A DNA stretch of 32,000 nucleotides from Pseudarthrobacter sp. SSS035 (GCF_023273875.1 NZ_CP096882.1:1209495-1241494), one strand, 5' to 3'; shown: positions 2-15,729, numbered from the stretch's first letter. The notes: generated by a model not told the origin, from the letters alone. Numbers and translations are program-made.

Positions 2-478
2 GCCGGCCGGCCCGTGGTGCAGATCAATACGGGAGCGGGCTGCCACCTGGACGCCGATATGCTCCGCCGCGGACTCGACGCGCTCGATCCCCAGATGGGT
101 TCCACCGTTTTTATCGAGAACGTGGGAAACCTCGTCTGCCCGGCCCTGTTTGATCTGGGCGAAGCAGCGAAAGTAGTAGTTGTCTCAGTAACGGAAGGTG
201 ATGACAAACCGCAGAAATACCCGCACATGTTCATGGCAGCTGACCTGGTGATCATCAACAAGTCGGACCTGCTCCCCTACGTCGAGTTCGACGTCGACGC
301 CTGCGTTCGCCGCATCCGTCGCCTGAATGCCCACGCGCAATTCCTGGTCCTCTCGGCCACTACCGGCGACGGCCTTGCCGCCTGGTATGACTGGCTGGAC
401 GGCCGCCCCTCCCGGACAGAGACCCGCGCAGGGTCTTTGGCAGGGCCTCTCGAAGAGTCCCTGACAGACGCACACTGA
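2..478 (+). CDS. hypB: HypB hydrogenase nickel-incorporation GTPase, C-terminal part (5' end lies outside the window)
   Basis: The reading frame is open to the window edge. The translation (VFIENVGNLVCPALFDLGE...VIINKSDLLPYVEFD...) matches the HypB/UreG-type GTPase core, including the NKxD box (INKSDL). It ends 31 nt upstream of the hydrogenase structural genes. Confidence 0.9.
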   Translation, partial: AGRPVVQINTGAGCHLDADMLRRGLDALDPQMGSTVFIENVGNLVCPALFDLGEAAKVVVVSVTEGDDKPQKYPHMFMAADLVIINKSDLLPYVEFDVDACVRRIRRLNAHAQFLVLSATTGDGLAAWYDWLDGRPSRTETRAGSLAGPLEESLTDAH

Positions 479-509
479 GCCCCCTCACGGGCCGCGGAAA
501 GAGGCACCG

Positions 510-1568
510 ATGCCTACCGAAACTTCCCTCAGGGCCGAAGAAACCCTGATTCACGTGCTCTGGATCAACGCAGGGCTGAGCTGCGACGGCGATTCCGTCG
601 CCCTGACAGCGGCTACCCAGCCCAGCGTGGAGGAGATCGCGCTCGGTGCCCTGCCCGGCCTGCCCCGCATTGCCATGCACTGGCCCCTGATCGATTTCGA
701 ATGCGGCCCCCAGGAAGGCGCGGACGACTTCCTCGAGTGGTTCCGCAAGGCGGACCGCGGCGAGCTGGAGCCGTTCGTACTCGTGGTGGAGGGCTCCATC
801 CCCAACGAGAAACTCCATGATCCCGGCGGCTACTGGTGCGGCTTCGGCAACGATCTGGCTACCGGCCAGCCGATCACCACAAGCGAGTGGCTGGACCGGC
901 TGGCACCCAAGGCCACGGCCATCATCGCCGCAGGCACGTGCGCAACGTACGGCGGCATCCATGCAATGGCGGGAAACCCCACCGGCGCCATGGGCGTCCC
1001 CGACTACCTGGGCTATGACTGGAAGTCCAAGGCCGGCATTCCGATCGTCTGCGTGCCCGGGTGCCCCATCCAGCCGGACAACCTCTCCGAAACCATGACC
1101 TACCTGCTGTACCAGGCCACCGGACAGGCCCCGATGATCCCGCTGGATGATGCGCTGCGGCCCACCTGGCTGTTCGGCAAGACGGTCCATGAAGGCTGTG
1201 ACCGGGCAGGCTATTACGAGCAGGGAGACTTCGCCACCGAGTACGGCTCCCCCAAGTGCATCGTCAAGCTCGGATGCTGGGGCCCGGTGGTCAAGTGCAA
1301 CGTGCCCAAGCGCGGCTGGATGAACGGGATCGGCGGCTGCCCCAACGTTGGCGGCATCTGCATCGGCTGCACCATGCCGGGCTTCCCGGACAAGTTCATG
1401 CCGTTTATGGACGAGCCACCCGGCGGCAAGCTCTCAACCAGCACCATCCGCCCTTACGGCGCCGCCATCAGGGCGCTGCGCGGCATCACGACCCACACGC
1501 TGGACCAGGAGCCCAAGTGGCGCCGGCCCGGCACCGAACTGCTGACCGGCGCACGGCGCACGTGGTAA
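510..1568 (+). CDS. hhyS: [NiFe]-hydrogenase small subunit, group 1h/5 (actinobacterial high-affinity type)
   Basis: ATG start with GAAAGAGG upstream; 352 aa. Cys-rich FeS-ligand pattern (GTCATYGG, CVPGCP, GCWGPVVKCNVP, GGCPNVGGICIGC). The N-terminus has no twin-arginine signal. The proximal-cluster motif reads LSCDGDS instead of the canonical CxGC. It lies immediately upstream of the large subunit. Confidence 0.92.
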   Translation: MPTETSLRAEETLIHVLWINAGLSCDGDSVALTAATQPSVEEIALGALPGLPRIAMHWPLIDFECGPQEGADDFLEWFRKADRGELEPFVLVVEGSIPNEKLHDPGGYWCGFGNDLATGQPITTSEWLDRLAPKATAIIAAGTCATYGGIHAMAGNPTGAMGVPDYLGYDWKSKAGIPIVCVPGCPIQPDNLSETMTYLLYQATGQAPMIPLDDALRPTWLFGKTVHEGCDRAGYYEQGDFATEYGSPKCIVKLGCWGPVVKCNVPKRGWMNGIGGCPNVGGICIGCTMPGFPDKFMPFMDEPPGGKLSTSTIRPYGAAIRALRGITTHTLDQEPKWRRPGTELLTGARRTW

Positions 1569-1595
1569 TCCCCTCTTTCCAGACAGGTGAAGAAC

Positions 1596-3389
1596 ATGAC
1601 TTCAACGATTCCTATGCCGTCCGGGAGCGGGACGGACAACAGCAACCTGGTGGAGATGGCCTGGGATCCCATCACCAGGATTGTGGGCAGCCTGGGCATC
1701 TATACCAAAATCGATTTTGCGAACAACCAGGTGGTGGAGTGCAAGAGCACGTCCTCGATCTTCCGCGGATACTCCATCTTTATGAAGGGCAAGGACCCGC
1801 GGGACGCCCACTTCATCACCAGCCGCATCTGCGGAATCTGCGGCGACAACCACGCCACCTGTTCCTGCTACACGCAGAACATGGCCTACGGCGTGAAGCC
1901 ACCGAACCTGGGCGAATGGATCGTCAACCTGGGCGAGGCCGCCGAGTACATGTTTGATCACAACATCTTCCAGGAAAACCTGGTGGGCGTGGACTACTGC
2001 GAAAGGATGGTCTCCGAGACCAACCCCGGCGTCCTGGCCAAGGCAGAAAATACCCGGGCCCCGCATGAAGGCGACCACGGCTACCGAACCATCGCGGACA
2101 TCATGCGCTCGCTGAATCCGTTCACTGGCGAGTTCTACCGCGAGGCCCTGCAGGTCAGCCGGGCCACCCGCGAGATGTTCTGCCTGATGGAAGGCCGCCA
2201 CGTGCACCCGTCCACGCTCTACCCCGGCGGCGTGGGGACCGTGGCTACCATCCAGCTCATGACGGACTACATCACCCGGCTCATGCGGTACGTGGAGTTC
2301 ATGAAGAAGGTCGTGCCGATGCATGACGACCTCTTCGATTTCTTCTACGAGGCGCTCCCTGGCTACGAACAGGTAGGCCTGCGCCGGACCCTGCTTGGCT
2401 GCTGGGGTTCCCTCCAGGACCCTGACTACTGCAACTTCGAGTACAAGGACATGACCCAGTGGGGCCGGAAGATGTTCGTCACCCCGGGCGTGGTGGTGGA
2501 CGGCAAGCTCGTCACCACGGACCTGGTCCGCATCAACCTGGGCATCCGGATCATGCTGGGTTCCTCCTACTACGAGGACTGGGAAGACCAGGAGATGTTT
2601 GTGACCCGCGATCCGCTGGGCAACCCGGTGGACCGCCGCCATCCCTGGAACCAGCACACCAATCCGCGGCCGCAGAAGAGGGACCTGAAGGAGAAGTACA
2701 GCTGGGTGATGTCCCCGCGCTGGTTCGACGGCGAGAACAACCTGGCGCTGGACACCGGCGGCGGCCCGCTGGCGCGGCTCTGGGCCACGTCACTGGCCGG
2801 GCTGGTGGACATCGGCTACATCAAGGCAACCGGCAAGAGCGTCCAGATCAACCTCCCCAAGACCGCCCTCAAAGGTCCTGTTTCCTTTGAATGGAACATC
2901 CCGCAGTGGAGCAACACCCTGGAACGCAACCGCGCCCGTACGTACTTCCAGGCCTATGCGGCTGCGGCGGCGCTGCACTTCGCCGAGAAGGCGCTGGAGG
3001 AAATCCGGGCCGGCCGGACCAAGACCTGGGAGTCGTTCACCGTTCCGGACGAGGCCATCGGCTGCGGCTTCACCGAAGCGGTCCGCGGCGTCCTGTCGCA
3101 CCACATGGTGATCCGGGACGGCAAGATCGCCAACTACCACCCGTACCCTCCGACACCCTGGAACGCCAGCCCCACAGACTCGTCCGGGACCCCCGGCCCC
3201 TACGAGGATGCGGTGCAGGGCCAGCCGATCTTCGAAGAGAACGACCGCGAGCACTTCAAGGGGATCGACATCATGCGGACTGTCCGGAGCTTCGACCCGT
3301 GCCTGCCGTGCGGTGTCCACATGTATCTGGGCAACGGCCAGACCCTGGAAATGCTGCACTCACCCACCCAGACCCTAACCGGCGAGTAA
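1596..3389 (+). CDS. hhyL: [NiFe]-hydrogenase large subunit, group 1h/5
   Basis: N-terminal Ni-binding motif TSRICGICGDNH and C-terminal SFDPCLPCGVH, which are the signatures I recall for group 5/1h. The ORF track starts at GTG 1587. I prefer ATG 1596, which has AGGTGA 5 nt upstream. Confidence 0.93.
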   Translation: MTSTIPMPSGSGTDNSNLVEMAWDPITRIVGSLGIYTKIDFANNQVVECKSTSSIFRGYSIFMKGKDPRDAHFITSRICGICGDNHATCSCYTQNMAYGVKPPNLGEWIVNLGEAAEYMFDHNIFQENLVGVDYCERMVSETNPGVLAKAENTRAPHEGDHGYRTIADIMRSLNPFTGEFYREALQVSRATREMFCLMEGRHVHPSTLYPGGVGTVATIQLMTDYITRLMRYVEFMKKVVPMHDDLFDFFYEALPGYEQVGLRRTLLGCWGSLQDPDYCNFEYKDMTQWGRKMFVTPGVVVDGKLVTTDLVRINLGIRIMLGSSYYEDWEDQEMFVTRDPLGNPVDRRHPWNQHTNPRPQKRDLKEKYSWVMSPRWFDGENNLALDTGGGPLARLWATSLAGLVDIGYIKATGKSVQINLPKTALKGPVSFEWNIPQWSNTLERNRARTYFQAYAAAAALHFAEKALEEIRAGRTKTWESFTVPDEAIGCGFTEAVRGVLSHHMVIRDGKIANYHPYPPTPWNASPTDSSGTPGPYEDAVQGQPIFEENDREHFKGIDIMRTVRSFDPCLPCGVHMYLGNGQTLEMLHSPTQTLTGE

Positions 3390-3395
3390 CCTGCC

Positions 3396-4328
3396 ATGCC
3401 CGGCGCGGACCGGCCGCTGCAGACCGGCGAACTGCAGCCCGGCGAACGGATCGGCACGCTCCTCGACGCCCTCGGCGCCGGCGGGGCGGTGGCCCGCGGC
3501 CGTGCCGAAGACCTGGTACGCCAGGTCACCGACATGTACGGCTCGGGGCTGGAACGCATCCTGGAAATCCTCGATGAGCAGGGAAAGCTCGACGACGGGA
3601 CGCTGGCGGCGCTCGCCTCCGACGAGCTGGTGTCCGGTCTGCTGATCATCCACGGCCTGCATCCCGAGTCGATGGAGACGAGGGTGGCCGGCGCCCTGGA
3701 CAGCGTCCGGCCGTACCTGGGCTCCCACGGCGGGGACGTGGAACTGCTGGGCATCAGCCCGGAGGGCGTGGTGCGGTTGAAGCTCCTCGGCACCTGCCAG
3801 GGCTGCCCGTCGTCGTCCGTCACCTTGAAGTTCGCCGTCGAAGAGGCGATTGAAACAGCGGCCCCGGAGGTGACGGCCATCGAAGTGGTGGAAGCGGAAA
3901 AGCACGCCGCCACCCCTGCCTTCATCCCCCTGGACTCCCTGCTGGTCCGGCTGGACAGCAGAGACCAGCCGGAAGGGTCTTGGGAGCCGGTCCCCGGCGT
4001 GGCCGACCTGGAACCCGGCGAGGTGGCCGGGTTCCAGGTGGGCGGCTATTCGCTGCTGGCCTGCCGGACCGGGCAGGACGTCTACGCCTACCGGGACCAC
4101 TGCCCGCGCTGCGACGGGTCCATGGCGGGCGCCGCCCTGCAGCGCGCCCTCGCCGCCCCCACCGGCGGCGGTCTGCTCCGCTGCCCCACGTGCCGCGCAC
4201 ACTTCGACGTCCGCCAGGCCGGCTCCTGCCTTGAAGACCGGAGCCTGCACCTGGACCCGCTCCCGCTGCTCGTGCGGAGCGGCGTGATGTCCGTGGCCGT
4301 GCCGGTTGCGGCCGGAAAGGGCGGCTGA
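3396..4328 (+). CDS. Hydrogenase-cluster protein: NifU-like (Nfu C-terminal type) domain fused to a Rieske-like/zinc-ribbon Cys4 domain
   Basis: ATG 6 nt after the hhyL stop. The central region (VRPYLGSHGGDVELLGI...LLGTCQGCPSS) is the classic NifU C-terminal CxxC motif. The C-terminal part carries HCPRC...(about 35 aa)...CPTCRAHF, arranged like a Rieske site but with Cys replacing His. Confidence 0.75.
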   Translation: MPGADRPLQTGELQPGERIGTLLDALGAGGAVARGRAEDLVRQVTDMYGSGLERILEILDEQGKLDDGTLAALASDELVSGLLIIHGLHPESMETRVAGALDSVRPYLGSHGGDVELLGISPEGVVRLKLLGTCQGCPSSSVTLKFAVEEAIETAAPEVTAIEVVEAEKHAATPAFIPLDSLLVRLDSRDQPEGSWEPVPGVADLEPGEVAGFQVGGYSLLACRTGQDVYAYRDHCPRCDGSMAGAALQRALAAPTGGGLLRCPTCRAHFDVRQAGSCLEDRSLHLDPLPLLVRSGVMSVAVPVAAGKGG

Positions 4329-4329
4329 C

Positions 4330-5001
4330 GTGGAGGGGCCCGGCCTGCCCGTTGCGCTGCTGCGCCGGATCGCCGCCGCACGGCCGGCGGCGCCCGCCGG
4401 CGAGCGCTGCGAAATGTGCGGGGAGCCCATCGCGGCCGAACACCAGCACGTGGTGGACCTGGACAGCCACGCCATGATGTGCACGTGCCGGCCGTGCTAC
4501 CTGCTTTTCACGGACAGCAACGCCCACCTCCGGTACCGCTCGGTGCCGGACCGGTACCTGTCCTTCCCCGATTTTGAGCTTGGCCCCGGCCAATGGGACG
4601 AGCTGGAGATACCCGTGGGACTGGCATTCTTCTTCCGCAGTTCCAGGATGGAGCGGACGGTTGCGTTTTATCCCGGCCCCGCCGGCGCCACCGAATCCGA
4701 GCTGCCCCTGGACGCGTGGGATGCCGTTATGGTGCAGAATCCCGCCCTGTCCCTTGCAGCTCCGGACACCGAGGCGCTCCTGATCCGTGGACCAGGCAAC
4801 GACCGTCCCGAGGCCGATTGCCACTTGGTCCCCGTGGACGCCTGCTATGAACTGGTAGGCCACCTGCGGCGGCTGTGGCGGGGGTTCGACGGCGGCCAGG
4901 AGGCCCGCAACCAGCTCACCGCGTTCTTCGACAAGGTCAGCGGCCGCAGCAAGCCGGTCCACGAAACCACGCGCAAGTCAGCGTCCGGAGGCCCGCAGTG
5001 A
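4330..5001 (+). CDS. Conserved hydrogenase-cluster hypothetical protein with a CxxC...CxCxxC motif (I recall the label DUF5947 but cannot verify it here)
   Basis: Same-frame ORF 4306-5001. Position 4306 is TTG, while GTG 4330 has GGAAAGGG 6-15 nt upstream and sits 1 nt after the previous stop. Motif: CEMCGEPIAAEHQHVVDLDSHAMMCTCRPCYLLF. Amino-acid composition looks like a real gene. Confidence 0.75.
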   Translation: MEGPGLPVALLRRIAAARPAAPAGERCEMCGEPIAAEHQHVVDLDSHAMMCTCRPCYLLFTDSNAHLRYRSVPDRYLSFPDFELGPGQWDELEIPVGLAFFFRSSRMERTVAFYPGPAGATESELPLDAWDAVMVQNPALSLAAPDTEALLIRGPGNDRPEADCHLVPVDACYELVGHLRRLWRGFDGGQEARNQLTAFFDKVSGRSKPVHETTRKSASGGPQ

Positions 5002-5741
5002 TTGCGCTGGCGTTCGAGGTCCTGGACATCCAGCCCGAACCGTACGCGGCGGCACCCCAGCTCACGGCGACCTTGCGGGTGACCGAGTCCACCGGCGCCG
5101 CTGTGCACGCGATCGCCCTGCGCTGCCAGGTCCGGATCCTGCCCCAGCGCCGCGGCTACTCGCCTGGTGAAGAGGCCGGCCTGCTGGACCTCTTCGGCGA
5201 GCGCAGGCGGTGGCCCACCACGCTGAAGTCCTTCCTCTGGCTGCAATGCAGCACCATGGTCCAGGGCTTCACCGGGGAAACCGAGGTGCGGCTGCCGCTG
5301 CCCTGCACCTTTGATTTCGACGTGTCCGCGGCCAAATACCTGCAGTCCCTGCGTGACGGAATTGTCCCGCTGGAGCTGCTGTTCTCCGGCACGGTCTTTA
5401 CCCGGGGCGAGGCCGGCTTCGGCGTGGAACAGGTGCCCTGGGACCTCGAAGCTCCGTACCGGCTTCCCGTGGACGCCTGGCGCCGGCTGATGGACCAGTA
5501 CTTCCCCAACACCGGTTGGCTCCGCCTGGACCGGGACGTACTGGCCGCCCTGTCGCACTACAAGGCGGCCCGCGGCCTGACGTCGTGGGACGCCACGGTG
5601 GAGAGCCTGCTGGCGGACGCCGCAGCTGTGTCCCCCGCCGCGGTATCCCGGGCAGCGGCAGTCCCGGCGGCGGCAGTCCCGGCGGCGGCAGCCCGGGCAG
5701 CGGCGTCCCAGCCAGCCCTGTCAGGAGACGCTCTGCCATGA
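4998..5741 (+). CDS. Conserved hydrogenase-cluster hypothetical protein (I recall the label DUF6084, unverified) with an Ala-rich pentapeptide-repeat tail
   Basis: GTG 4998 overlaps the upstream stop as GTGA. The translation (VIALAFEVLDIQPEPYAAAPQLTATLRV...) has normal composition. The tracked ORF start at 4875 would overlap the previous gene by 127 nt and adds an Arg/Pro-rich extension, so I rejected it. Confidence 0.7.
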   Translation: MIALAFEVLDIQPEPYAAAPQLTATLRVTESTGAAVHAIALRCQVRILPQRRGYSPGEEAGLLDLFGERRRWPTTLKSFLWLQCSTMVQGFTGETEVRLPLPCTFDFDVSAAKYLQSLRDGIVPLELLFSGTVFTRGEAGFGVEQVPWDLEAPYRLPVDAWRRLMDQYFPNTGWLRLDRDVLAALSHYKAARGLTSWDATVESLLADAAAVSPAAVSRAAAVPAAAVPAAAARAAASQPALSGDALP

Positions 5742-7159
5742 ACATGAGCCTGAGCCTGGCCCGCGCCGTGGCCGATGCCGTCCTTTACGAGGGCTACCTG
5801 CTCTACCCGTACCGCGCGTCCTCGCAGAAGAACCAGGCCCGCTGGCAGTTCGGCATCCTCGGCCCGCCAGGCGCTGCCGCGGCCGGCACCGGCGAGGAAC
5901 CGGATATGTTCGCGGACTGCCTGCTCACCCCGGGCCAGCACGCCGCCATCGAAATCCATCTGCGCTTCCTGCAGCTCCAGAGCCGGTCCGCCGAGAAAAT
6001 GGACGACGACGGCGGGTTCACGGCGGTTGATGAACTTACGGTCGGCGCCTCCCGCTGGCTGAGCTGGGACGAGGCAGCCGAACGGGAAGTCACGCTGGGA
6101 CCGTTCCCCGTCGCAGGGCTCAGCGAGCCTGGGACCGTTCTGCCCGTGGAGGTGCCCGGCGGCGAGGACATCGAGGAACTCCGTGACGCCTCGGGGCGGC
6201 TGGCTGGGAGACTGGTCCGCCGTCGTCGTCCGCTGCAGGGTGAGGTGAGGCTGGCAGCTTCGCCTGCCGGCGGGCCACTGGTCAGGCTGCGCGTCGGGGC
6301 CGCCAATGGGGCTGCGAATGGCTGGACGGATAGCTGGACCAGACAGCACGCCATCGCGGAATCCTTCATCGGCACGCACCTGCTGCTGAGCCTCCAAGAC
6401 GCGGACTTTGTTTCCCTGCTTGAGCCGCCACCGAGCGCCCAGGCCGCTGCGGCCACCTGCACGCAGCACCGGTGCTGGCCCGTCCTGGCCGGTCCGGACG
6501 GGCAGTCGGACGTGCTGCTGGTATCCCCGATCATCCTCTACGACCATCCGGCGGTGGCCCAGGAAAGTTCGGTGGCGCTGTACGACTCCACCGAAATCGA
6601 CGAGATCCTCACACTGCGCGTGCTGACCCTCACCGAGGAGGAGAAGGCCGAAGCCCGCGCCACGGATCCACGGGCCGCAGCCATCATCGACCGGTGCGAG
6701 GCCATGTCCCCGGCGGAGCTGCAGCAGCTGCACGGCATCCTGCGCAACCCGCGTGCCATGGACGGGGCTGAATTGGATGCCGCGTTGGACGAGGTCCCCC
6801 GCGTTGGGGAACTCCAATCCGGACGCCCCGGAGAGGAAGCCGCGTGGTGGACACCCGAAGCCGAAGCCCTGGTCCAGCCGCACCTGGATGCCGTCCTGAT
6901 CAACGGGGTTCCGGTGGCCCGGGGCAGCAGGGTCAGGGTGAATCCAAGCCGGCGCGCCGATGCCCAGGACCTGTTCTTCGCGGGGCAGACGGGACGCGTC
7001 ACCAACGTCCACTTCGATGTTGACGGCAGCACCCATGTGGGCCTGGTCCTCGACCAGGACCCCGCCGCGGACCTCCACGAGGGCTACGGCCGGTCCTTCT
7101 ATTACTCACCGGAAGAGCTCGAACCCCTGGGGCAGGATGGAAAGGAAAGCCCGCCATGA
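5738..7159 (+). CDS. Conserved hydrogenase-cluster hypothetical protein, 473 aa, no recognisable catalytic motif
   Basis: ATG 5738 overlaps the upstream stop as ATGA, with AGGAGA 10 nt upstream. The translation starts MNMSLSLARAVADAVLYEGYLLYPYRASSQKNQARWQFGILGP. The C-terminal 70 aa looks like a small beta domain (RVRVNPSRRADAQDLFFAGQTGRVTNVHFDVDG). Confidence 0.75.
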   Translation: MNMSLSLARAVADAVLYEGYLLYPYRASSQKNQARWQFGILGPPGAAAAGTGEEPDMFADCLLTPGQHAAIEIHLRFLQLQSRSAEKMDDDGGFTAVDELTVGASRWLSWDEAAEREVTLGPFPVAGLSEPGTVLPVEVPGGEDIEELRDASGRLAGRLVRRRRPLQGEVRLAASPAGGPLVRLRVGAANGAANGWTDSWTRQHAIAESFIGTHLLLSLQDADFVSLLEPPPSAQAAAATCTQHRCWPVLAGPDGQSDVLLVSPIILYDHPAVAQESSVALYDSTEIDEILTLRVLTLTEEEKAEARATDPRAAAIIDRCEAMSPAELQQLHGILRNPRAMDGAELDAALDEVPRVGELQSGRPGEEAAWWTPEAEALVQPHLDAVLINGVPVARGSRVRVNPSRRADAQDLFFAGQTGRVTNVHFDVDGSTHVGLVLDQDPAADLHEGYGRSFYYSPEELEPLGQDGKESPP

Positions 7160-7275
7160 GAATCATAGGAATGGCCACCGTAGCGTTGCTGGCGGCGTTG
7201 GCACTCGGCGCCGTGTACGTGGGGATCCGCTCGGTCCCGGATGTCCAGCGCTACCTAAAAGCGCGGCGCATGTGA
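7156..7275 (+). CDS. Small predicted single-pass membrane peptide (39 aa), absent from the supplied ORF track
   Basis: I translated it by hand: MRIIGMATVALLAALALGAVYVGIRSVPDVQRYLKARRM. ATG 7156 overlaps the upstream stop as ATGA, and the ORF ends 7 nt before the endopeptidase ATG. It has one hydrophobic helix followed by a basic tail. The track appears to omit ORFs under about 60 aa. Confidence 0.55.
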   Translation: MRIIGMATVALLAALALGAVYVGIRSVPDVQRYLKARRM

Positions 7276-7282
7276 GCCCGGA

Positions 7283-7783
7283 ATGACTGTGCTGGTGGCC
7301 GGCGTGGGCAACATGTTCATGCGCGACGACGGCTTCGGCCCGGAAGTCGCCCGCCGGCTGGCGTCGGAGGGGGGACTGCCGCCCGGCGTCGAGGTGGCTG
7401 ACTACGGCATCCGCGGCATGCACCTGGCGTACGACCTCCTGACCGGAGTGGACCTGCTGATCCTCGTGGATGCCGTCCCGCCCGAGCGGACCGAGCAAGA
7501 CGGGGCCCCCGGCAACCTCCGCGTGCTCCGGATCCGCAGCGAGGATCTCGACGCCGGCGCCGCCCTGGACCCGCACGGCATGGACCCTGCAGCCGTCCTG
7601 GGGAAGCTCCGATCGCTGGGCGGCGAAGTCCCCGTGACCTACGTGGTGGGCTGCGTTCCGGCCGACGTCACCGAGGGCATCGGCCTGACACCGTCCGTGT
7701 CCGCCGCCGTCCCGGCGGCGATGGTCGCCGTCGTCGATCTCCTCACCCAGCACACCTCCCAGCAGCCCCCCAAGCAGACCTAA
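7283..7783 (+). CDS. Hydrogenase maturation endopeptidase (HyaD/HupD/HybD family)
   Basis: The N-terminal sequence VLVAGVGNMFMRDDGFGPEVARRL is the family signature (GxGNxxxxDDGxG). 166 aa. Located within the hydrogenase operon. Confidence 0.9.
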   Translation: MTVLVAGVGNMFMRDDGFGPEVARRLASEGGLPPGVEVADYGIRGMHLAYDLLTGVDLLILVDAVPPERTEQDGAPGNLRVLRIRSEDLDAGAALDPHGMDPAAVLGKLRSLGGEVPVTYVVGCVPADVTEGIGLTPSVSAAVPAAMVAVVDLLTQHTSQQPPKQT

Positions 7784-7795
7784 GGCGGACCAACC

Positions 7796-8059
7796 ATGTG
7801 CCTCGGAATCCCCGGCCAGGTCATCGGCCCGATCGACGGCTACGGCGACCAGCTGGCCCTGGTGGACGTGGCCGGCGTACAGCGCAAGATCAACATCGGA
7901 CTCCTGGACGAAGGACCACTGCCTCCGGGCAGCTGGGTCCTGATCCACATGGGCTTCGCGCTCGAGCGGGTGGATCCTGCGGGCGCCGAACGGGCCATGA
8001 GCGGCCTGGAACTGATGGGCCAGCCACGGCAACCCGGCGACGACAGCCAAGGCGGTTAG
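7796..8059 (+). CDS. hypC: HypC/HybG/HupF hydrogenase assembly chaperone
   Basis: It starts MCLGIPGQV, with the essential Cys at position 2. 87 aa. It contains the ...GSWVLIHMGFAL... OB-fold motif. Confidence 0.92.
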   Translation: MCLGIPGQVIGPIDGYGDQLALVDVAGVQRKINIGLLDEGPLPPGSWVLIHMGFALERVDPAGAERAMSGLELMGQPRQPGDDSQGG

Positions 8060-8069
8060 GCGGATGGGC

Positions 8070-8098
8070 CGGCGTCCAGAGCGCCGCTCTTTATCGTT
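8070..8098 (+). terminator. Weak candidate intrinsic terminator after hypC
   Basis: A 5-bp GC stem (CGGCG 8070-8074 / CGCCG 8082-8086) with a 7-nt loop, followed by CTCTTTATCGTT. The stem is short, so confidence is low. Confidence 0.25.
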
Positions 8099-8108
8099 CG
8101 AAGGCGAC

Positions 8109-8882
8109 TTAGCGTTCGAGGGCGATGGCGGCGCCGCGATGCTCCACGCCGCTGTTGGCGATCTTGAGGTGCCTGCCGGTGAAGAGCTTGAGTTGCTGCA
8201 GCTGGTGGGGTGTCAGCCGGTCACAGACCCAGTCCCAGTGGAGCGAAACCACGTCACCGGCCGCCAGCCCGGCAATGAAGCCGGTTCCGTTCACGGCATA
8301 CTTGGCGGTCTCCACCACGGGCTCCCCCACCGCCAGGGATATGCCATCCCAGGTCAGGGGCCGCGATTTCACCACGGCTTCGTCCCCGGTGATGGCGAGG
8401 ACCTCACCCCACCGGATCCGGCAGCGGTCCAGGACGTTCAGTGCGGTGGCATACCGGCGGTCATCTCGCAGCAGGCCCAGCCAGGGATAGATTTCGAAGA
8501 CGTGGAAGCTGTGGTGCGGGACGCCGCCGGCGAGGACGCCTTCCACGAGGTGCGGAAACTGCCGGCCGGTGCGTGCCCGGAACCGGTCTTCCATCGAGTT
8601 GCCCATGGTGCTGATGCCCACGGTGTCCAGGAGGCTGTTGCCCACCCAGTACGCCTCCACCACGCGGGCGTCGAGCGGATCGTGGATGCCGTGGGAACCG
8701 GCAATCAGTTCCAGGTAGGGAAAGGCGCCGGCAAAGCCCTTCGCGAGTTCCCGCAGGCCTTGGTCCGTGACTCCGGACTGGCCGTAGTGCAGGAGGGCGT
8801 CACTGTCGGGAGGGCCGCAACTGCCTCGGGAATTGGGCGGGTACGCGTACCGGACAAACAACTGGGCACCATCGACAACCAT
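8109..8882 (-). CDS. Conserved hypothetical protein (I recall the label DUF6390, unverified), convergent on the hydrogenase operon
   Basis: ATG with a strong GGAGAAGGTGG RBS upstream. 257 aa: MVVDGAQLFVRYAYPPNSRGSCGPPDS.... Composition looks like a real gene. The 329-aa + strand ORF 8064-9053 is its antisense shadow. Confidence 0.75.
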   Translation of the reverse strand: MVVDGAQLFVRYAYPPNSRGSCGPPDSDALLHYGQSGVTDQGLRELAKGFAGAFPYLELIAGSHGIHDPLDARVVEAYWVGNSLLDTVGISTMGNSMEDRFRARTGRQFPHLVEGVLAGGVPHHSFHVFEIYPWLGLLRDDRRYATALNVLDRCRIRWGEVLAITGDEAVVKSRPLTWDGISLAVGEPVVETAKYAVNGTGFIAGLAAGDVVSLHWDWVCDRLTPHQLQQLKLFTGRHLKIANSGVEHRGAAIALER

Positions 8883-9034
8883 GGCGTGGCCACCTTCTCC
8901 GCAGGTCTTTTGAACGTAGCACCGCAGTCGGCCCCGGACAAGAGTGGGTTAGCGGCCGCGGAACCACAAGAATCCATCGGCAGCCTCCGCCCACGTACGG
9001 ACGCTGCGCCAACCGAAAGCAGGGGTCACGCACC

Positions 9035-10189
9035 ATGGCAACCACTGATCTGAACCGCCGCGCTGCCCTTCAACTTCTGGTGGCGGGAGGCTCTGCCGCC
9101 CTGCTGGCCGGATGCGCCGGCACCGCTGGTTCCCCGCCGTCGTCGGGCCCTGCAACGAACGGCGGGAACGGTGGCAGCGGCGCGATCAGCATCACCGATC
9201 AGCGCGGCAAAACCCTTACCTTCGCCCGGCCCGTGACCCGGGTGGTGACCATCCCCATGCCGGCGGCGTCTCTGCTGGTGGCGGTGGACCGCACGGCTGA
9301 CCATCTCGCCGCCATGCACAACGCCTCTTGGGTGGCCATGCGCGACGGCATCATGGGCACCATCTTTCCCAAGGCCCTGGAGCTGCCGCACGAGATCGCC
9401 ACCCAGGACTTCACGGCCAACGTGGAGAGCGTGCGGGCCCTGGACCCGGACGTGGTGATCCAGTGGTCCGACGCCCAGCTCATCGACCCGCTGGAAAAGG
9501 CCGGCCTGAACGTCATCGGGCTGACCAACAACGGCAAGCAGGAGGACGTAGATGCGTGGGTGGCCATGTTCGCCGCGATGCTGGGGAAGCCCGAACGCGC
9601 CGCGGATATCAAGACCCGCAGCGACCTGGAACTTGCCGCCGTCAAGAAGCTGGCGGCCGGCCGCAATTCCGCCGGGCCCAGCATCCTGTACTTCAACCGG
9701 TTCACCGGCGGCCTGAAGGTGGCTGCCGCCAATAGCTACAACGATTTCTACATCAAGCTTGTGGGCGGCACAAATCCCGCCACCGGGCCTGACCCGCTGC
9801 AGGGCTCGGGGATGGTGGGCCTGGACGTGGAGCAGGTGCTGCGGTGGGATCCCGAGATCATCCTGCTGGGAAATTTCGACGCCGCTATGCCCCAGGATCT
9901 CTACTCCGACCCCGTCTGGCAGACCGTGTCCGCGGTAAAGAACCGGCGCGTGTACAAGGTGCCGCTGGGTGGATACCGGTGGGATCCCCCCGGGCAGGAA
10001 TCACCGCTGATGTGGCACTGGCTCAGCGACATCGCCTTCCCGCAGCAGCGCTCCCTTCTCCGGAACAAAGTCACCGAGTACTTCGATTTCCTGTACAGCC
10101 ACAAGCCGACGGCGGCGGAACTGGACAAGGTCCTGTGGACTGCGGCCAACGCCGACTCTGACCACTACCGGCAGTTCAATGCTGCATGA
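9035..10189 (+). CDS. ABC transporter substrate-binding lipoprotein, TroA/FecB/BtuF-like (metal-chelate, type II importer class)
   Basis: The N-terminus (NRRAALQLLVAGGSAALLAGCAG) has a twin-arginine motif plus a lipobox Cys. The body resembles periplasmic-binding-protein family 2 (iron-siderophore/cobalamin type). It is followed by a FecCD permease and an ATPase. Confidence 0.8.
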   Translation: MATTDLNRRAALQLLVAGGSAALLAGCAGTAGSPPSSGPATNGGNGGSGAISITDQRGKTLTFARPVTRVVTIPMPAASLLVAVDRTADHLAAMHNASWVAMRDGIMGTIFPKALELPHEIATQDFTANVESVRALDPDVVIQWSDAQLIDPLEKAGLNVIGLTNNGKQEDVDAWVAMFAAMLGKPERAADIKTRSDLELAAVKKLAAGRNSAGPSILYFNRFTGGLKVAAANSYNDFYIKLVGGTNPATGPDPLQGSGMVGLDVEQVLRWDPEIILLGNFDAAMPQDLYSDPVWQTVSAVKNRRVYKVPLGGYRWDPPGQESPLMWHWLSDIAFPQQRSLLRNKVTEYFDFLYSHKPTAAELDKVLWTAANADSDHYRQFNAA

Positions 10190-11315
10190 CGCCAGCGACG
10201 AACGGCTTGAGGCCAGCCGCGCCCGTGCGCCCGGAGAGCCGGACACCGAATCCGCCGGGTCTTACGACGACCGGGACCGTGCGCGGGACGGGCCGCCTGG
10301 ACCATCGGCCCTGAAGCCCATCGCCATCAGCACCATGTTCCTGGTCGCCGTGACCTTGGTGGCCCTGGCCGTGGGCCGCTACAACGTTCCGCTCTGGCAC
10401 GTGGTGCAGATCCTGGTGGGGCAAGTTGTCCCGATCCCCTCCGAGGCCACCGCCACGGAGGAGAATGTGGTGCTCCTGGTCAGGTTGCCGCGCGTGCTGC
10501 TGGCGCTGCTGGTGGGCGGCGGACTGGCGATCGGCGGCGCCGCGCTGCAGGCCATCTTCCACAATCCGCTGGTCAGCCCGGACATCATCGGTGTTTCCGC
10601 GGGCGCATCCTTCGGCGGCTCGCTGGCCATACTCCTGGGGCTGGGGACGTTCGCGCTGATCACCAGTTCCTTCACTTTCGGACTGGTTGCCCTGGCCATG
10701 CTGTTCCTCATCACCTCGGGGCGCGGCGGGACTCCCCTGCTGATGATCGTGCTGGGCGGCGTGGTCACGGGATCGTTCTTCTCCGCGCTGGTAGCCCTGG
10801 TCACCTACATCGCGGATCCCAACACCACGTTGCCGGCCATCGTGTTCTGGCTTCTGGGGAGCGTAGCCACCGCCACCTTCGCCAAGGTGGGAGTGGCGCT
10901 GATTCCCGTGGTCGGGGGCGCCTTGGTGCTCCTGGCATTGCGGTGGCGCATCAACGTGCTCTCGCTGGGCGACGACGACGCCGCCGCGCTGGGGATCCGG
11001 CCGCGGCCGCTGCGGTGGGTGGTCCTCGTTTCGGTGGCACTGATCGTGGCCGGGGCGGTTGCCGTCAGCGGAGCAGTCAGCTGGGTGGGCCTGGTGGTCC
11101 CGCACCTGGCAAGGATGTGGGTGGGACCGGACCATCGGGTCCTGCTGCCGGTGTCCTTCCTCCTGGGCGGCGCGTACATCATGCTCGTGGACACCGTGGC
11201 ACGCACCGCGACGGCGGGCGAGATCCCGCTCGGTGTGCTGACGGCGCTGATCGGCGCGCCCGTGTTTTTTGTGCTGCTGCGCCGGAACCGGGACAGGATC
11301 TGGGAAAGTGCTTGA
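10179..11315 (+). CDS. FecCD/BtuC-family ABC permease
   Basis: Multi-pass hydrophobic protein with typical FecCD segments (LLVGGGLAIGGAALQAIFHNPLVSPDIIGVS, LGDDDAAALGIRP, GAVSWVGLVVPHLAR, PLGVLTALIGAPVFFVLL). The start is uncertain: ATG 10179 overlaps the upstream gene by 11 nt and adds a 52-aa charged N-terminus, and ATG 10335 is an alternative. Confidence 0.85.
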   Translation: MLHDASDERLEASRARAPGEPDTESAGSYDDRDRARDGPPGPSALKPIAISTMFLVAVTLVALAVGRYNVPLWHVVQILVGQVVPIPSEATATEENVVLLVRLPRVLLALLVGGGLAIGGAALQAIFHNPLVSPDIIGVSAGASFGGSLAILLGLGTFALITSSFTFGLVALAMLFLITSGRGGTPLLMIVLGGVVTGSFFSALVALVTYIADPNTTLPAIVFWLLGSVATATFAKVGVALIPVVGGALVLLALRWRINVLSLGDDDAAALGIRPRPLRWVVLVSVALIVAGAVAVSGAVSWVGLVVPHLARMWVGPDHRVLLPVSFLLGGAYIMLVDTVARTATAGEIPLGVLTALIGAPVFFVLLRRNRDRIWESA

Positions 11316-12051
11316 GCTCAACGGTGTGGGCTTCGGCTACGGCCGGGCGGGCTGGGTCTTCCGGGACGTCAGCTTCCAGGTCCTGCCGGGAACCGCCACC
11401 GCAGTCCTGGGTCCCAACGGCAGCGGCAAGACCACGCTGGTGCGCTGCGCCGCCGGGCTGCTGAACCCCGTGGAGGGAAGCGTCACCCGGGCGGCCAGGG
11501 CCGGCTACGTCCCGCAGGCCCATGGCAGTACCTTCGCCTACCGGGCCCTCGATATGGTGCTGATGGGACGAGCCCGGCAGATCGGTCTCTTCCGGTCGCC
11601 CGGCGCCGCGGACCGGGCTGCTTCCCTGGAGGCCATGGACAGGGTGGGCATCGCCGGCCTCAGCAGCAGGTTCTTCCCCACCCTCAGCGGCGGCGAGCAA
11701 CAGCTTGTCCTGATCGCCCGTGCCATCGCCGCCGGCTGCCCCGTCCTGGTGCTGGACGAGCCCGCCACCGGCCTGGACCTGAAGAACCAGGTCCGCGTCC
11801 TGCGGCTGCTGCGCGAACTCATGACGGACGGCATGGCGGTGCTCCTTAGCACGCACCATCCGGACCACGCCCTGTATCTTGCCGACCGGGCCGTTCTGCT
11901 CACTGCCAGCGGACCGCGGACCGGTGATGCTTTGCAGCTCCTGAGCGAGAAGGAACTCACTGCTCTGTACGGCGTGGGCGTCAGCACAATGGCATACGCC
12001 GACGGCCGCAACACCCGCCGGAGCGTAGTAGTGCACTACGGCGGCGAGTGA
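11308..12051 (+). CDS. ABC transporter ATP-binding protein (FecE/FhuC/BtuD-like)
   Basis: Walker [10 protein letters not shown], signature LSGGEQQ, Walker B VLVLDEP. GTG 11308 has AGGA 9 nt upstream and overlaps the permease stop. The tracked start at 11269 would add a Cys/Gly-rich extension. Confidence 0.9.
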
Positions 12052-12073: not shown

Positions 12074-14896
12074 TTAGCCCGTGTTGCGCAGGCCGGCCGC
12101 CACCCCGTTGACCGTGATCAGCATGGCCCGCTGGAGGCGTTCGTCGATCTCGGCTCCGCTGATGCTCCCGCTTTCGGCGTTCTGGGCAGCCCGCACGCGG
12201 CGAAGCAACTCCACCTGCAGGTAGCTGATGGGGTCCAGGTACTGGTCCCGGATCTCCAGCGACCGCTTGAGCGTCGGCTGCGCGTCCAGGAGCACGTTCT
12301 CGCCCGTCAGGTTCTGGATCTCGGTGACCGTGAGTTCGTACTCTTCACGGATGGCCCGGAAAATGTGGTGCAGGTCCTCGGGAACCAGGGTGGCCACGTA
12401 GTACCCGGCGATGTCCATGTCCGTCTTGGCCAGCGTCATCTCCACGTTGGAGATGACCGACCGGAAGAAGTGCCAGTTCTCCATCATCTCCACCAGCTGC
12501 GCGGAGTTTCCGGCCTCGCGGGCAGCCTTCAGGCCCGAGCCCACACCGAACCAGCCCGGGACGATCTGCCGGGACTGGGTCCAGCCGAACACCCAGGGGA
12601 TGGCACGCAGGCCGCCAAGCCCCGCCCCGGAATCCGGGCGTTTGGACGGGCGTGAGCCGATGTTCAGCGAGCCCAACTGCTCCACCGGTGTGGAGGCCAG
12701 GAAGTACGCGGGCAGGTCAGGATGGTCGATCAGATTCCGGTACCGGTCGAAGGCGCCGTCGGAGATGATTTCCATAACGTGCCCGTACCGTTCGCGCTGG
12801 TCGTCCGACGTGCGCGGATCCCTGTGCAGGGCCGAGCCCTGGAGCACTGCCGCGAGGGACAGCTCCAGGTTTTCCCGGGCCAGCTCCGGCAGCGAGTACT
12901 TGTCCGAGATGACCTCGCCCTGCTCAGTGAACTTAATCTCGCCTTCCAGCACGCCGTTGGGCTGGGCCATGATGGCGTCGTAGGTGGGTCCGCCGCCGCG
13001 GCCCACGGAACCGCCGCGGCCGTGGAACAACCGGACACGGACGCCATGCTTGGCCGCAACGTCGCGCAGGTTGCGCTGGGTCTTGTGGATCTCCCACTGG
13101 CTTGTCATCACGCCGGATTCCTTGTTGGAGTCCGAGTAGCCCAGCATGATTTCCTGGACGTCGCCGCGCAACCGGACCAAGTCGCGGTAGGACGGAACAG
13201 ACAGCAGCTGGTCCACGATCTCCGCCGAGGCACGCAGTTCCTCCACGGTCTCCAGCAAGGGCGCGAACCCGATCTTGGCGTAGGGGGCGTCGCCGAACAG
13301 GTTGATCAGGCCTGCCTCGCGGGCCAGCACGGCCGCGGCCAGGACGTCGTCCGCGCCGCGGGTCATGGAAATGATGTAGGTCTCGATGACGTCCGGACCG
13401 TACGTGCGCAGGGCACGGCGGATCTCACGGAAGACGTCGTACGTGCCGTCAGCGACGCCGTCGAGCTTAATCGGGTGACCGGACAGCGGCCGGCGTGAGG
13501 CGAGCTCCAAGCCGAGCACCTCGAAGCGTTCCTCGCGGCTCAGTTCGGCATAGCGGATGCCGGGGCCGCCCAGCCGGTCCATCAGCTGGCCAACGGCGTC
13601 GTGGTGGTGGTCGGCGTGCTCACGGATGTCCAGGGTGGCCAGGTGCAGGCCGAAGGACGCGACGGCGCGGCGGACACGGGCCAGGGCGCCGTCGGCAGCG
13701 AGCGACGCGGAGTGGTTGCGGAGGGACAGCTCCAGCAGTTCGAGGTCGTTGAGGAGTTCCTCGGTGGAGCTGTAGTCACGGCCGTGCTCATGGGTGGAGT
13801 CCGCGGCAACCCGCTTGCCCGTGTTGATGAGCTTGGCCTTGATGCACGTGAGCTTCAGGCGGTACGGCTCCTGGGCGTTGAGCTCCAGGACACGCCGGTC
13901 CAGGCCCGGCAGCTTCTTCAGGTCCGCGTCGATGGAGTCCAGCAGGGTCTGGTCCGCGCCGGACAAGGCGGTGGAGTTGGACAGGATGGAGATCAGCTCG
14001 TCCATCATCGCGATGCTGATGCGGACGGCGTGCTGGTTCTGGATCTGCAGAATTTCCCGGGTGACCGCCGCAGTGACGTTGGGATTGCCGTCCCGGTCGC
14101 CGCCGATCCAGGACCCAAACCGGATGGGTGCGTCCTGGGACGAAAGGCTGACCCCGTGCTCGCCGAGCAGTTCCGAGAAATCCGAGAGCATCTCGGGCAT
14201 GGCGTCCGTCAGGATGCCGCCGAGGTAGTAGATCGCGTTGCGGGCCTCGTCCACAGGGGTGGGGCGTACCTGGCGCAGTTCGTCGGTCTGCCACATCTGG
14301 TCGATGACCTCCGAAAGCTGGCGGTCCTGGCGGCGGCGCGCGGTGGTGCCTTCTTTCGTGGGCTCGGCCAGGACATCGGAGAGCTTGCGGATCTTGTCCA
14401 GCACGGAACGGCGCGAGGCTTCGGTGGGGTGGGCGGTGAAGATGGGGCGGACGTCCAGCCCGTTGACCACTTCCTGCAGGACTTCGGGCCCCGCCTTAGC
14501 GGCGATTTCGGTGACGGCCTTGGCCAGCCACCCGTCCTTCTCCTGCCGGGTCCGCAGGCCGCGGACCCGATGGACCTGCTCGGCCGCGTTGGCAAGGTGG
14601 AAGTAGAACGCGAACGCACGCACCAGGTCGGTGGCCTGCTCGATCGGCAGGGAGCCGAGCAGTTCGCGGACCTGTTCGACGACGTCGTGCGCGCTCCATG
14701 GTCCGGTGGCATCGGCACCGCCGCGTGCGGCTTCCTTGGACTCCTTGGTGAGGAGGCGGACCTGCTCCACCAGGGCAAGGAGTTCGGGGCCGTGCTGGCG
14801 GACCAGGGACTCACCCAGCAGCGTGGAGACGCGCCGGACGTCGGCCCTCAGTTCAGAGGCAAGGTCGGTTGAGGAGTTCATTGCAGTGTTAGCCAT
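12074..14896 (-). CDS. ppc: Phosphoenolpyruvate carboxylase
   Basis: About 940 aa with PEPC hallmarks: [30 protein letters not shown], and the canonical C-terminal ...LRNTG. The start is either ATG 14896 (MANTAMNSS...) or GTG 14935. Neither has a strong RBS. Confidence 0.95.
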
Positions 14897-15048
14897 GGAA
14901 ACTGTCTTTCGAGGGTTCGGACTTGGCTCGTACACTGCGCTGGATACTGTGAGCCACGTTACTAGCTATCGATGCTACCTGCACGGGATGGCGAAGGCGG
15001 AATCCGTCTCAGATATTGCGCCGGTCGCCGCCCCTGCCGCGCTGGACT

Positions 15049-15729
15049 TCAGCGGACGATCTTGAAATTGAAATCCGGAGTCCCCAACACCGACCACAGG
15101 CGCAGCCACACCGGGAGCATCATCTCCGCTCCGCGGGCGGTGGTGATGTCTCCGAGGTCAATAATATCGCGGTGGCCCAGCTCCTGCAGGAGCGCCGTCA
15201 CGGTGTTCTTGGCACCGGCGTCGTCGCCGGAGACAAACACCGAGTGGTCCCCGCCGCTCAGCCGTCCGGGGTCAACCATCAGCCCGGCGTTCATGGTGTT
15301 GAGGGTTTTGACCACCCGCGCCTCCGGGAACGCGTGCTGGATCCGTTCGGCATTGCTGTCCGTGTTGACCGGGTTCAGGACCGGCGGCATGCCCTGGGAG
15401 AAGTCGAGCGGGTTGGAAACGTCCACCACAACTTTCCCCGACAGGTTGGCCGAACCCGCGGCACCGAGGGCGCTGAGTGCGCCCGCTCCGTTCGTTGCAT
15501 TGAGTACCAGTTCCGCCCCGGCTGCGGCCTCCGCAAACGTTTCCAGGGCTATGTGCTGGTTGGCTACGTGCCATTCGCTGAAAGGTGGCGTGCCCATGGC
15601 GTCCGGCGCGCTGCGGGCGAGAGTCCCTCCCGGGTCGCGGGTGCCCACCACCACGTCGTGTCCCAGCGCGGACAACGCGCCCGCGAGGGTCCGGCCTGCG
15701 AAACCCGTGCCCAGGACCGCGATTTTCAT
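15049..15729 (-). CDS. NAD(P)-binding oxidoreductase, NADPH-dependent F420 reductase (NpdG)-like family
   Basis: ATG 15729 is preceded by TTGGAGGAACC. The N-terminal sequence MKIAVLGTGFAGRTLAGAL is a Rossmann GxGxxG motif. 226 aa. The tracked ORF extends to 15936 but that part lacks coding character. Confidence 0.75.
   Translation of the reverse strand: MKIAVLGTGFAGRTLAGALSALGHDVVVGTRDPGGTLARSAPDAMGTPPFSEWHVANQHIALETFAEAAAGAELVLNATNGAGALSALGAAGSANLSGKVVVDVSNPLDFSQGMPPVLNPVNTDSNAERIQHAFPEARVVKTLNTMNAGLMVDPGRLSGGDHSVFVSGDDAGAKNTVTALLQELGHRDIIDLGDITTARGAEMMLPVWLRLWSVLGTPDFNFKIVR

Follow-up and report, generated by a model that had tools for sequence, protein, structure and literature searches.

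A conserved five-gene block between hhyL and the maturation endopeptidase of Pseudarthrobacter, a possible assembly and docking module of group 1h [NiFe]-hydrogenases

The window analysed here is a 32,000-nucleotide (nt) stretch of Pseudarthrobacter sp. SSS035 (NZ_CP096882.1:1209495-1241494), to which all coordinates refer. Its subject is a block of five open reading frames (ORFs) lying between hhyL, the large-subunit gene of a group 1h (Hhy) [NiFe]-hydrogenase, and the gene for the maturation endopeptidase. We propose, with moderate confidence, that the block encodes an Hhy-specific assembly and docking module of group 1h hydrogenases, and not electron-transfer or catalytic subunits; such a module would assemble the enzyme in air and then hand it over. 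The assembly reading is the best supported because in other lineages genes of the block are naturally fused with the protease gene and with one another, because their products diverge like maturation factors and are absent from the solved enzymes, and because of two published results: deletion of hhyE is not rescued by an artificial electron acceptor, and the HhyE paralogue HucE is missing from the purified Huc hydrogenase.

Group 1h hydrogenases are a main biological sink for atmospheric H2, with maturation in air, membrane attachment and electron transfer to quinone as standing questions. The block holds the only unexplained genes of the operon, and it is conserved from Actinomycetota to Proteobacteria. 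It is a recognised, conserved and uncharacterised part of hhy clusters rather than a discovery of the present window, which adds one more member; a comparative paper of July 2026 still lists the remaining genes as hypothetical proteins in a conserved cluster (PMC13332983). What is new here are the protease and other fusions, the maturation-like divergence, the absence from solved structures, and unannotated mini-ORFs on Cupriavidus necator pHG1 and a Methylocystis plasmid. Together, the protease fusions, the divergence, a universal mini-protein with an invariant terminal Met and a family without a Pfam model make an old question cheaply testable. Sorting assembly factors from partners of the mature enzyme matters for heterologous production of O2-insensitive enzymes and for hhyL-based environmental surveys.

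Gene layout and coupling architecture

As established by direct reading of the sequence together with the ORF list, the end of hypB, hhyS, hhyL, the five ORFs, the endopeptidase gene and hypC form a single same-strand run (14-8059, + strand). The five ORFs are real genes, laid out as follows. ORF1 (HhyE, 310 amino acids (aa), 3396..4328, +) starts with ATG six nt after the hhyL stop codon (TAA, 3387-3389). ORF2 (DUF5947, 223 aa, 4330..5001, +) and ORF3 (DUF6084, 247 aa, 4998..5741, +) start with GTG, and ORF4 (473 aa, 5738..7159, +) and ORF5 (DUF6893 mini-protein, 39 aa, 7156..7275, +) with ATG. The HyaD/HycI-type maturation endopeptidase gene follows (7283..7783, +, start ATG; Pfam HycI and TIGR00072, 113 bits). 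Between the hhyL stop and the start of the protease gene the successive spacings are 6, 1, -4, -4, -4 and 7 nt. The 4-nt overlaps are GTGA at 4998 (ORF2/ORF3), ATGA at 5738 (ORF3/ORF4) and ATGA at 7156 (ORF4/ORF5), and an alternative TTG start of ORF2 at 4306 would overlap ORF1. Shine-Dalgarno-like purine runs stand before ORF2 to ORF5, within the preceding genes.

No terminator-like hairpin was found on the + strand from 510 to 8059, and the only + strand candidate past 510 (8070..8090) lies directly 3' of hypC; this site is a consensus match only, and the whole count of such sites is not above that of shuffled controls. The best explanation is that the block is co-transcribed with hhySL, the endopeptidase gene and hypC, and is translationally coupled. 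A sequence-only reading of this stretch had given gaps of at most 7 nt and the three overlaps, and every coordinate was confirmed when the sequence was read again; the junctions are indeed built for the coupling that it had claimed. It had further claimed that the products are made in fixed ratios, which an overlap of stop and start codons does not imply.

Fusions, divergence and absence from solved enzymes

Gene fusions are a first line of evidence on function. A C-terminal HycI protease domain is present in seven of the ten longest representatives of the ORF4 family; in four of these seven clusters there are two or three full-length members that are independent of each other and come from different sources, one being an Acidimicrobiaceae metagenome-assembled genome. 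Locus L083, which carries such an ORF4~protease fusion, has no separate protease gene. A 765-aa DUF6084~ORF4 fusion forms a 28-member cluster across JGI, NCBI, Logan and ENA, and in a locus of that lineage (L085) the gene after hhyL joins the N-terminal half of HhyE (33% identity, E 6e-15) to DUF5947, the NifU CxxC being lost. Fusions of DUF5947 to DUF6084 (about 38 proteins, P0390-P0426 and P0494) were not counted. Nearly all of them are single records in ENA, on long contigs, near-identical cluster-mates of P0391 have the two unfused, and such a fusion is possibly an artefact, since a one-base error at the ATGA junction in a long-read assembly would create it.

Divergence was taken as the median identity to the window protein in the non-Micrococcaceae loci L012-L082. 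The catalytic subunits are well conserved (HhyS 87%, HhyL 86%); HhyE (53%), DUF5947 (60%), DUF6084 (56%) and ORF4 (54%) fall with the protease (53%) and HypC (62%), and the five accessory proteins overall are 46-60% identical to their window versions. Since their identities are close to those of the protease and HypC and far below those of HhyS and HhyL, the accessory proteins evolve like maturation factors.

Sequence and profile searches of the Protein Data Bank (PDB) returned no homologue of ORF1 to ORF4 that is a chain of 5aa5, the solved group 1h enzyme, or of any other hydrogenase entry; for ORF2 to ORF4 the same searches of PDB sequences found nothing.

Conservation beside hhyL

Scanning one genome per species with ORF4 as the anchor gave 80 loci, nearly all of them from Actinomycetota; the full set of 85 related loci covers Actinomycetota, Beta- and Alphaproteobacteria and loci of unassigned lineage. 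The order hhyS-hhyL-HhyE-DUF5947-DUF6084-ORF4 is collinear in 85/85 loci, between hhyL and the protease or hypC. In the 80-locus set, tblastn places hhyS, hhyL, HhyE, DUF5947, DUF6084, ORF4, the 39-aa ORF, the protease gene and hypC on the same strand and in the same order wherever the contig reaches. C. necator pHG1 and a Methylocystis parvus plasmid have an annotated order that is identical except for the small ORF, and order is also kept around ORF4 homologues that are only 37-38% identical. Among plasmid records, the 13 with hhyL are the 13 with DUF5947; these records and the literature are the basis for judging whether hhyL occurs without the module, the genome scan being anchored on ORF4. 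The sequence-only reading had named a lack of conservation beside hhyL as one thing that would refute it, and in view of this collinearity it is not refuted on that count.

The junctions are kept as well. Overlaps of 4 nt or 1 nt occur at HhyE/DUF5947 in 60/80 loci, at DUF5947/DUF6084 in 72/83 and at DUF6084/ORF4 in 75/85, plus two fusions, a retention of 75-88% across the three internal junctions. ORF4 and ORF5 lie within -20 to +15 nt of each other in 76 of 79 loci, compared with just 13 of 67 for hhyS/hhyL. This arrangement is far beyond chance.

In about 16 loci (L012, L013, L017, L023-L025, L034, L052, L058, L063, L065, L070, L073, L078-L080), 0.25-0.64 kb of extra DNA separates the mini-ORF from the protease gene and holds one or two small ORFs (74-108 aa), which had no match in Pfam.

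HhyE and DUF5947

The product descriptions of the sequence-only reading all hold (a NifU/Rieske-like fusion, a CxxC...CxCxxC protein, a protein with a repeat tail, a 473-aa protein and a 39-aa membrane peptide): ORF1, ORF2, ORF3 and ORF5 match Pfam, and ORF4 matches none and has thousands of homologues. Its statement that none has an assigned role stands in that the biochemical roles were unsettled as of 2026 (PMC13332983); it does not stand for ORF1, which corresponds to an M. smegmatis protein essential for Hhy activity, nor altogether for ORF2, for whose homologue a role has been proposed.

ORF1 has an N-terminal helical part, an Nfu-type NifU domain (C134xxC137; PF01106, 77 bits, E 1e-21) and a C-terminal Rieske-fold domain (C223, C236xxC239, C263xxC266). 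The Nfu-type motif GTCQGCPSS, holding C134 and C137, is intact, and Nfu proteins in the PDB match at E 7e-17 to 1e-9. The Rieske match is weak (PF00355, 21.2 bits against a cut-off of 20.3; PF13806, 22 against 27). The seven Cys are kept in 71-73 of 77 loci (C134xxC137 in 72-73/77; C236PRC239 and C263PTC266 in 71-73/77), and the latter two are the pair of CxxC motifs of the HhyE family description, which consists of a NifU-like CxxC domain and two C-terminal CxxC motifs (PMC6883350). By these motifs, ORF1 is assigned to HhyE. The canonical CxH...CxxH pattern was not found in ORF1; both boxes are CxxC and the ligand histidines are absent, so that HhyE has a Rieske fold and no Rieske centre.

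In M. smegmatis, deletion of hhyE abolishes Hhy activity in amperometric and zymographic assays, and no activity is seen even with the artificial acceptor nitroblue tetrazolium (NBT); the choice between electron relay and assembly was left undecided (PMC6883350).

ORF2 matches DUF5947 over nearly its full length (PF19372, 244.5 bits against a cut-off of 25, E 7e-73), which assigns it to the PHG067/MSMEG_2717 family; the C. necator pHG1 homologue is 42.6% identical. MSMEG_2717, the gene after hhyE, is homologous to PHG067, for which the role of electron acceptor in C. necator had been put forward before (PMC6883350). Residues C27, C30, H38, H40, C51, C53, C56 and C172 are invariant, giving the motif C27xxC30...C51xC53xxC56. 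In an AlphaFold2 model with a predicted local distance difference test score (pLDDT) of about 90, these Cys and His residues fall on predicted short hairpins, after which come a helix and then an alpha/beta domain, and the modelled N-terminal part would have the layout of a zinc-ribbon or rubredoxin-like knuckle. The fold search gave no structural neighbour for DUF5947; the 50 listed matches of a concatenated DUF5947 and DUF6084 model are mostly immunoglobulin (Ig)-like sandwiches.

DUF6084 and ORF4

ORF3 is likewise a near full-length member of its family (PF19562, 314 bits against a cut-off of 25, E 6e-94). The predicted structure of DUF6084 is an Ig-like beta-sandwich with C-terminal helices, and its Foldseek matches, the Ig-like and E-set matches of the concatenated model being assigned to the DUF6084 half, include Kir-channel cytoplasmic domains, transglutaminase sandwiches, GH3 FnIII-like domains, TMEM106B, LEA14 and ApaG. 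The Ala/Pro tail of ORF3, encoded by 4.3 copies of a 15-nt repeat (5646-5709), is lineage-specific, since most DUF6084 proteins have 213-218 aa and no tail.

ORF4, which occupies the position of PHG069 and is 100% identical to a protein of the SSS035 genome, matched no Pfam or NCBIfam model and yet has a large family around it: at least 8000 homologues when clustered at 90%, and 3849 clusters (50% identity) with E<=1e-3. Its AlphaFold2 model (pLDDT 87; predicted template-modeling score (pTM) 0.72) has at its N-terminus the motif EGYxLYPYRxSxxKNQxRWQFG, which is strongly conserved. Next come a large beta-sandwich (56-263) and a bundle of helices (288-333), and a disordered linker then leads to a C-terminal barrel (385-465) that is SH3-like. 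At the acidic helical bundle, D283, E286, D288 and E289 are invariant in a 64-sequence alignment, as is H332. We also note that C241, C246 and C320 (window 6458-6475 and 6695-6697) are kept in 78-83 of 85 loci; these Cys, the acidic cluster and H332 could form a candidate metal site.

The C-terminal domain shares its SH3-like fold with PetP, a peripheral subunit of the cytochrome b6f complex (Foldseek template-modeling (TM) score 0.64-0.76, normalised to PetP), with CarS (phmmer E 0.012) and with the C-terminus of nitrile hydratase beta. These are resemblances of fold only, at 15-22% identity, and ORF4 is six times larger. Outside this domain no convincing structural neighbour of ORF4 was found in the PDB; the top fold match, DrmA (7s9w_A, E 5e-5), is uninformative, with a TM score of 0.25 and a root-mean-square deviation of 22 A.

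The subunits and the mini-protein

The hydrogenase is a standard group 1h enzyme. HhyS (510..1568, +; Pfam Oxidored_q6 and NiFe_hyd_SSU_C) is nearest in the PDB to HofK (5aa5_A, 541 bits), and HhyL (1587..3389, +) to HofG (5aa5_C, 1068 bits), all other hydrogenases scoring at most 160 bits against HhyL; 5aa5 is the C. necator actinobacterial-type hydrogenase, made of HofK and HofG. In keeping with group 1h, the HhyS N-terminus, MPTETSLRAEETLIHVLW, has no RRxF motif. No twin-arginine translocation (Tat) signal and no transmembrane segment was found in the HhyS and HhyL translations, which leaves ORF5 as the sole membrane element of the operon; a Pfam search of the operon products likewise gave no cytochrome b family. 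HhyL ends in DPCLPCGVH followed by a 22-aa extension, which by its sequence is a normal endopeptidase substrate that would have to be removed.

Two further observations concern the subunit genes. The longest hhyL ORF begins with GTG at 1587, with no purine-rich Shine-Dalgarno-like run upstream, and since the HofG alignment starts at HhyL residue 19 the true start may be downstream. In addition, RefSeq mis-annotates the small subunit of the group 1h enzyme, naming it 'hydrogenase expression protein HypE', both on pHG1 (L001 5423-6478) and on the Methylocystis plasmid (L002 5505-6584); a similar mis-annotation has been remarked for R. equi (PMC13332983).

ORF5 matches DUF6893 over nearly its full length (PF21833, 42.9 bits against a cut-off of 24.6, E 5e-11). 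It has a single predicted hydrophobic transmembrane helix and then a basic tail, RSVPDVQRYLKARRM, with the consensus RS(I/V/L)PDxxRY(L/M)(K/R)xRxM. It was found in all 79 actinobacterial loci that extend that far, with D29, R32, Y33 and the terminal Met invariant and the stop codons varying (TGA 38, TAG 35, TAA 6). In the window the codon for this Met (within 7270-7275) is not the start of the next gene. The peptide may plausibly underlie membrane association and is a candidate anchor.

Outside the actinobacteria, unannotated DUF6893-like ORFs lie between the protease gene and hypF on C. necator pHG1 (L001 12214-12315; NC_005241.1 about 66753-66854; MKGFLKYLVLPALVVALLANIKDIRRYIRIRSM) and between the protease gene and hypC on the Methylocystis parvus plasmid (L002 11950-12048; MGLFEIILGLLILALIAFNFRDIVRYIKITMM); both end in Met, as in actinobacteria. 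DUF6893-like ORFs also follow the protease in L084 and L086-L089. At L083 one (2423-2545; …LTSGPDLLRYLRIRNM) lies out of frame within the linker-coding part of the ORF4~protease fusion, and is either an overlapping gene or a relic. In some non-actinobacterial clusters the order protease, DUF6893 peptide is followed by a YceI-like protein (PF04264, E 2e-11; L084 4361-4873, L086 10121-10651, L087 6660-7190). From its lipid/isoprenoid-binding fold this protein is a possible quinone-handling partner; a literature search found no paper linking YceI to hydrogenases.

Assembly, electron transfer or repair

From these gene arrangements, folds and motifs we infer the following steps, including the iron-sulfur (Fe-S) carrier, adaptor and anchor roles, for the proposed assembly and docking module. 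The Nfu-type CxxC domain of HhyE, aided by the Cys-rich Rieske-fold domain, would supply or repair the Fe-S clusters of HhyS, and DUF5947, as a Cys/His metal-knuckle protein, would act together with HhyE, so that both would serve metal or Fe-S supply to the small subunit. DUF6084, with its Ig-like sandwich, and ORF4, with its sandwich and SH3-like barrel, may form an adaptor or chaperone that keeps hold of pre-HhyL and offers the 22-residue extension of this precursor to the endopeptidase. The DUF6893 peptide would be embedded in the membrane, the basic tail lying in the cytoplasm, as a docking point for the finished enzyme or for the assembly complex. The behavior of the HhyE paralogue is consistent with this: HucE is needed for Huc activity yet is absent from purified HucS/L/M, which reduces menaquinone analogues as isolated (PMC10017518).

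It is tempting to go one step further, although we hold this only tentatively: DUF6084 and ORF4 could be an unrecognised adaptor that couples HhyL processing to delivery of the enzyme to the 33-45-residue DUF6893 membrane peptide, a route extended in some lineages by the YceI-like isoprenoid-binding protein beside the peptide. If so, a [NiFe]-hydrogenase that is Tat-independent, cytoplasmic and membrane-associated would have a new maturation and targeting path, and this path would account for the enzyme's access to the menaquinone pool.

Several points weigh against the assembly and docking reading. On native gels HhyE runs together with HhyS/L, and in M. smegmatis its gene was placed in the structural operon (PMC6883350). 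The composition of the block varies, with the NifU CxxC lost in L085 and DUF5947 absent in L086. Methylacidiphilum fumariolicum SolV lacks these genes and still has an active, high-affinity, membrane-associated group 1h enzyme (PMC7174314), and 9.5% of surveyed hydrogenase-positive species have neither HhyE nor HucE (PMC6883350); the module is therefore not a universal requirement. The concatenated DUF5947 and DUF6084 model, built on an unpaired block alignment, reached a pTM of only 0.53, so there is no confident interface between the two. C. necator also has a DUF6893-like ORF, and its group 1h enzyme was obtained in purified form from the cytoplasm and has low affinity (PMC7174314), which argues against a simple anchor role if the ORF is expressed. 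Lastly, the five family hidden Markov models run against HoxL/O/Q/R/T/V and HypX from pHG1 (hmmsearch --max) scored about 0 bits, and no Pfam or NCBIfam match joins the block to these proteins.

The alternative that survives best, though we consider it rather improbable, is that of the sequence-only reading and of the original HhyE/PHG067 hypothesis, in which the block supplies the physiological electron path that is missing, together with the anchor. Redox-active Fe-S or Fe(Cys)4 centres in HhyE and DUF5947 would then receive electrons from the distal HhyS cluster, with ORF4 and DUF6084 as the scaffold of the complex and DUF6893 as its anchor at the membrane near menaquinone. The conserved Cys of HhyE, the invariant five Cys, two His and C172 of DUF5947, and the lack of a cytochrome b or other acceptor gene among the Pfam matches of the operon products all suit it, as do the co-migration of HhyE with HhyS/L, the proposal of PHG067 as an acceptor, the conserved single-pass membrane peptide and the likeness of the ORF4 SH3-like domain to PetP, a subunit of a membrane redox complex. 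Moreover, group 1h enzymes have a higher apparent affinity when associated with the membrane (PMC7174314). Nevertheless, NBT does not rescue the hhyE deletion; purified Huc manages without HucE; and the crystallised and purified group 1h enzymes, 5aa5 among them, consist of HhyS/L only. Neither the ORF4~protease fusions of several lineages nor the maturation-like divergence fits an electron path, and the loss of the NifU CxxC in the HhyE~DUF5947 lineage, the missing DUF5947 in L086 and the SolV enzyme tell against it too. The block is the right place to look for missing parts, as had been claimed, and the balance leans to maturation and assembly.

We think it decidedly unlikely that the proteins serve instead in protection or repair of the enzyme in cells that are dormant and aerated, by re-insertion of damaged Fe-S clusters, by stability over weeks in spores or starved cells or by control of oligomeric state, and are needed neither for first maturation nor for electron transfer. 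Hhy is expressed during long-term persistence and in spores (PMC6883350, introduction), the Nfu-type domain of HhyE fits cluster repair, some group 1h lineages do without the module, and the Ig-like and SH3-like adaptor folds of DUF6084 and ORF4 bear no catalytic signature. On such a view, however, the hhyE deletion should cause a gradual loss and not zero activity (PMC6883350), and the endopeptidase fusions point to the first maturation step.

Finally, that some of the ORFs, especially the 39-aa one, or their start codons are artefacts of a region of 68-71% G+C, in which long spurious ORFs are common in all frames, is practically negligible, as each ORF matches a Pfam family or a family with thousands of homologues and the smallest is kept in every locus that reaches it, with invariant residues ahead of varying stop codons.

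Comparison with other hydrogenase systems

A close parallel is the M. smegmatis hhy cluster, which is also group 1h and has HhyE (MSMEG_2718) directly after hhyL, followed by the PHG067 homologue MSMEG_2717 (PMC6883350); the mycobacterial loci of our set have the same gene order as the window. The window differs in its Micrococcaceae host and in the extra Ala/Pro repeat tail of ORF3. In M. smegmatis hhyE is placed in the structural operon and the rest in a maturation operon, whereas in the window all junctions are 7 nt or less and no terminator-like site intervenes.

The actinobacterial-type hydrogenase cluster of C. necator H16 pHG1 (hofK, hofG, NifU, DUF5947, DUF6084, a 476-aa protein and the protease; PHG066-070 by position) resembles the window in order and in overlapping junctions. 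Its HhyL is 78.5% identical, its DUF5947 42.6%, and its DUF6084 and ORF4 about 37-41%. In contrast to the window, its NifU protein is truncated to 192 aa without the Rieske-fold domain, its DUF6893 peptide comes after rather than before the protease, unannotated, and its enzyme is reported to be cytoplasmic and of low affinity (PMC7174314).

The O2-tolerant membrane-bound hydrogenase (MBH) of C. necator also has a run of enzyme-specific helper genes after the structural genes (hoxMLOQRTV/hypX), including a protease and a HypC-like chaperone. For some MBH helpers, including the rubredoxin HoxR, the need arises only during maturation in air (cited in PMC6883350). The MBH set is not homologous to the block, however, and the MBH operon has a cytochrome b anchor, HoxZ, which the window operon lacks.

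For the group 2a enzyme Huc, HucE is a paralogue of HhyE, about 27% identical and also essential; its Rieske motif is the true CxH...CxxH, in place of which HhyE has only Cys (PMC6883350). The small accessory protein HucM gives Huc membrane contact and quinone access (PMC10017518). None of the five products is predicted, from the models, to form a long coiled coil like the HucM stalk, the HucM sequence itself not having been compared; ORF5 is a 39-aa transmembrane peptide and HucM a coiled-coil tube.

Neighbouring genes in the window

Upstream, the 3' part of hypB (14..478, +; CobW/HypB/UreG GTPase domain, PF02492, E 6e-14) opens the window, so the hydrogenase cluster extends beyond the window start. 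The tight run closes with a hypC/hupF-type chaperone gene (7796..8059, +; Pfam HupF_HypC, E 2e-20).

A 329-aa ORF (8064-9053) starts within the terminator-like hairpin after hypC and had no Pfam or NCBIfam match. Sequence similar to it (43-58% identity) occurs after hypC only in Micrococcaceae loci, with weak matches (25-39%) elsewhere on the other strand, and the ORF could be a gene particular to this lineage or a spurious frame that is conserved. Directly downstream lies an ABC importer (9035-12051) with a Peripla_BP_2 periplasmic binding protein, a FecCD permease and an ATPase at overlapping junctions, possibly for uptake of an iron chelate or other metal serving the enzyme. The hydrogenase region ends at a phosphoenolpyruvate carboxylase gene (12074-14935, - strand; PF00311, 1078 bits), which is followed by a gene for a DUF1684 protein (15016-16680, +).

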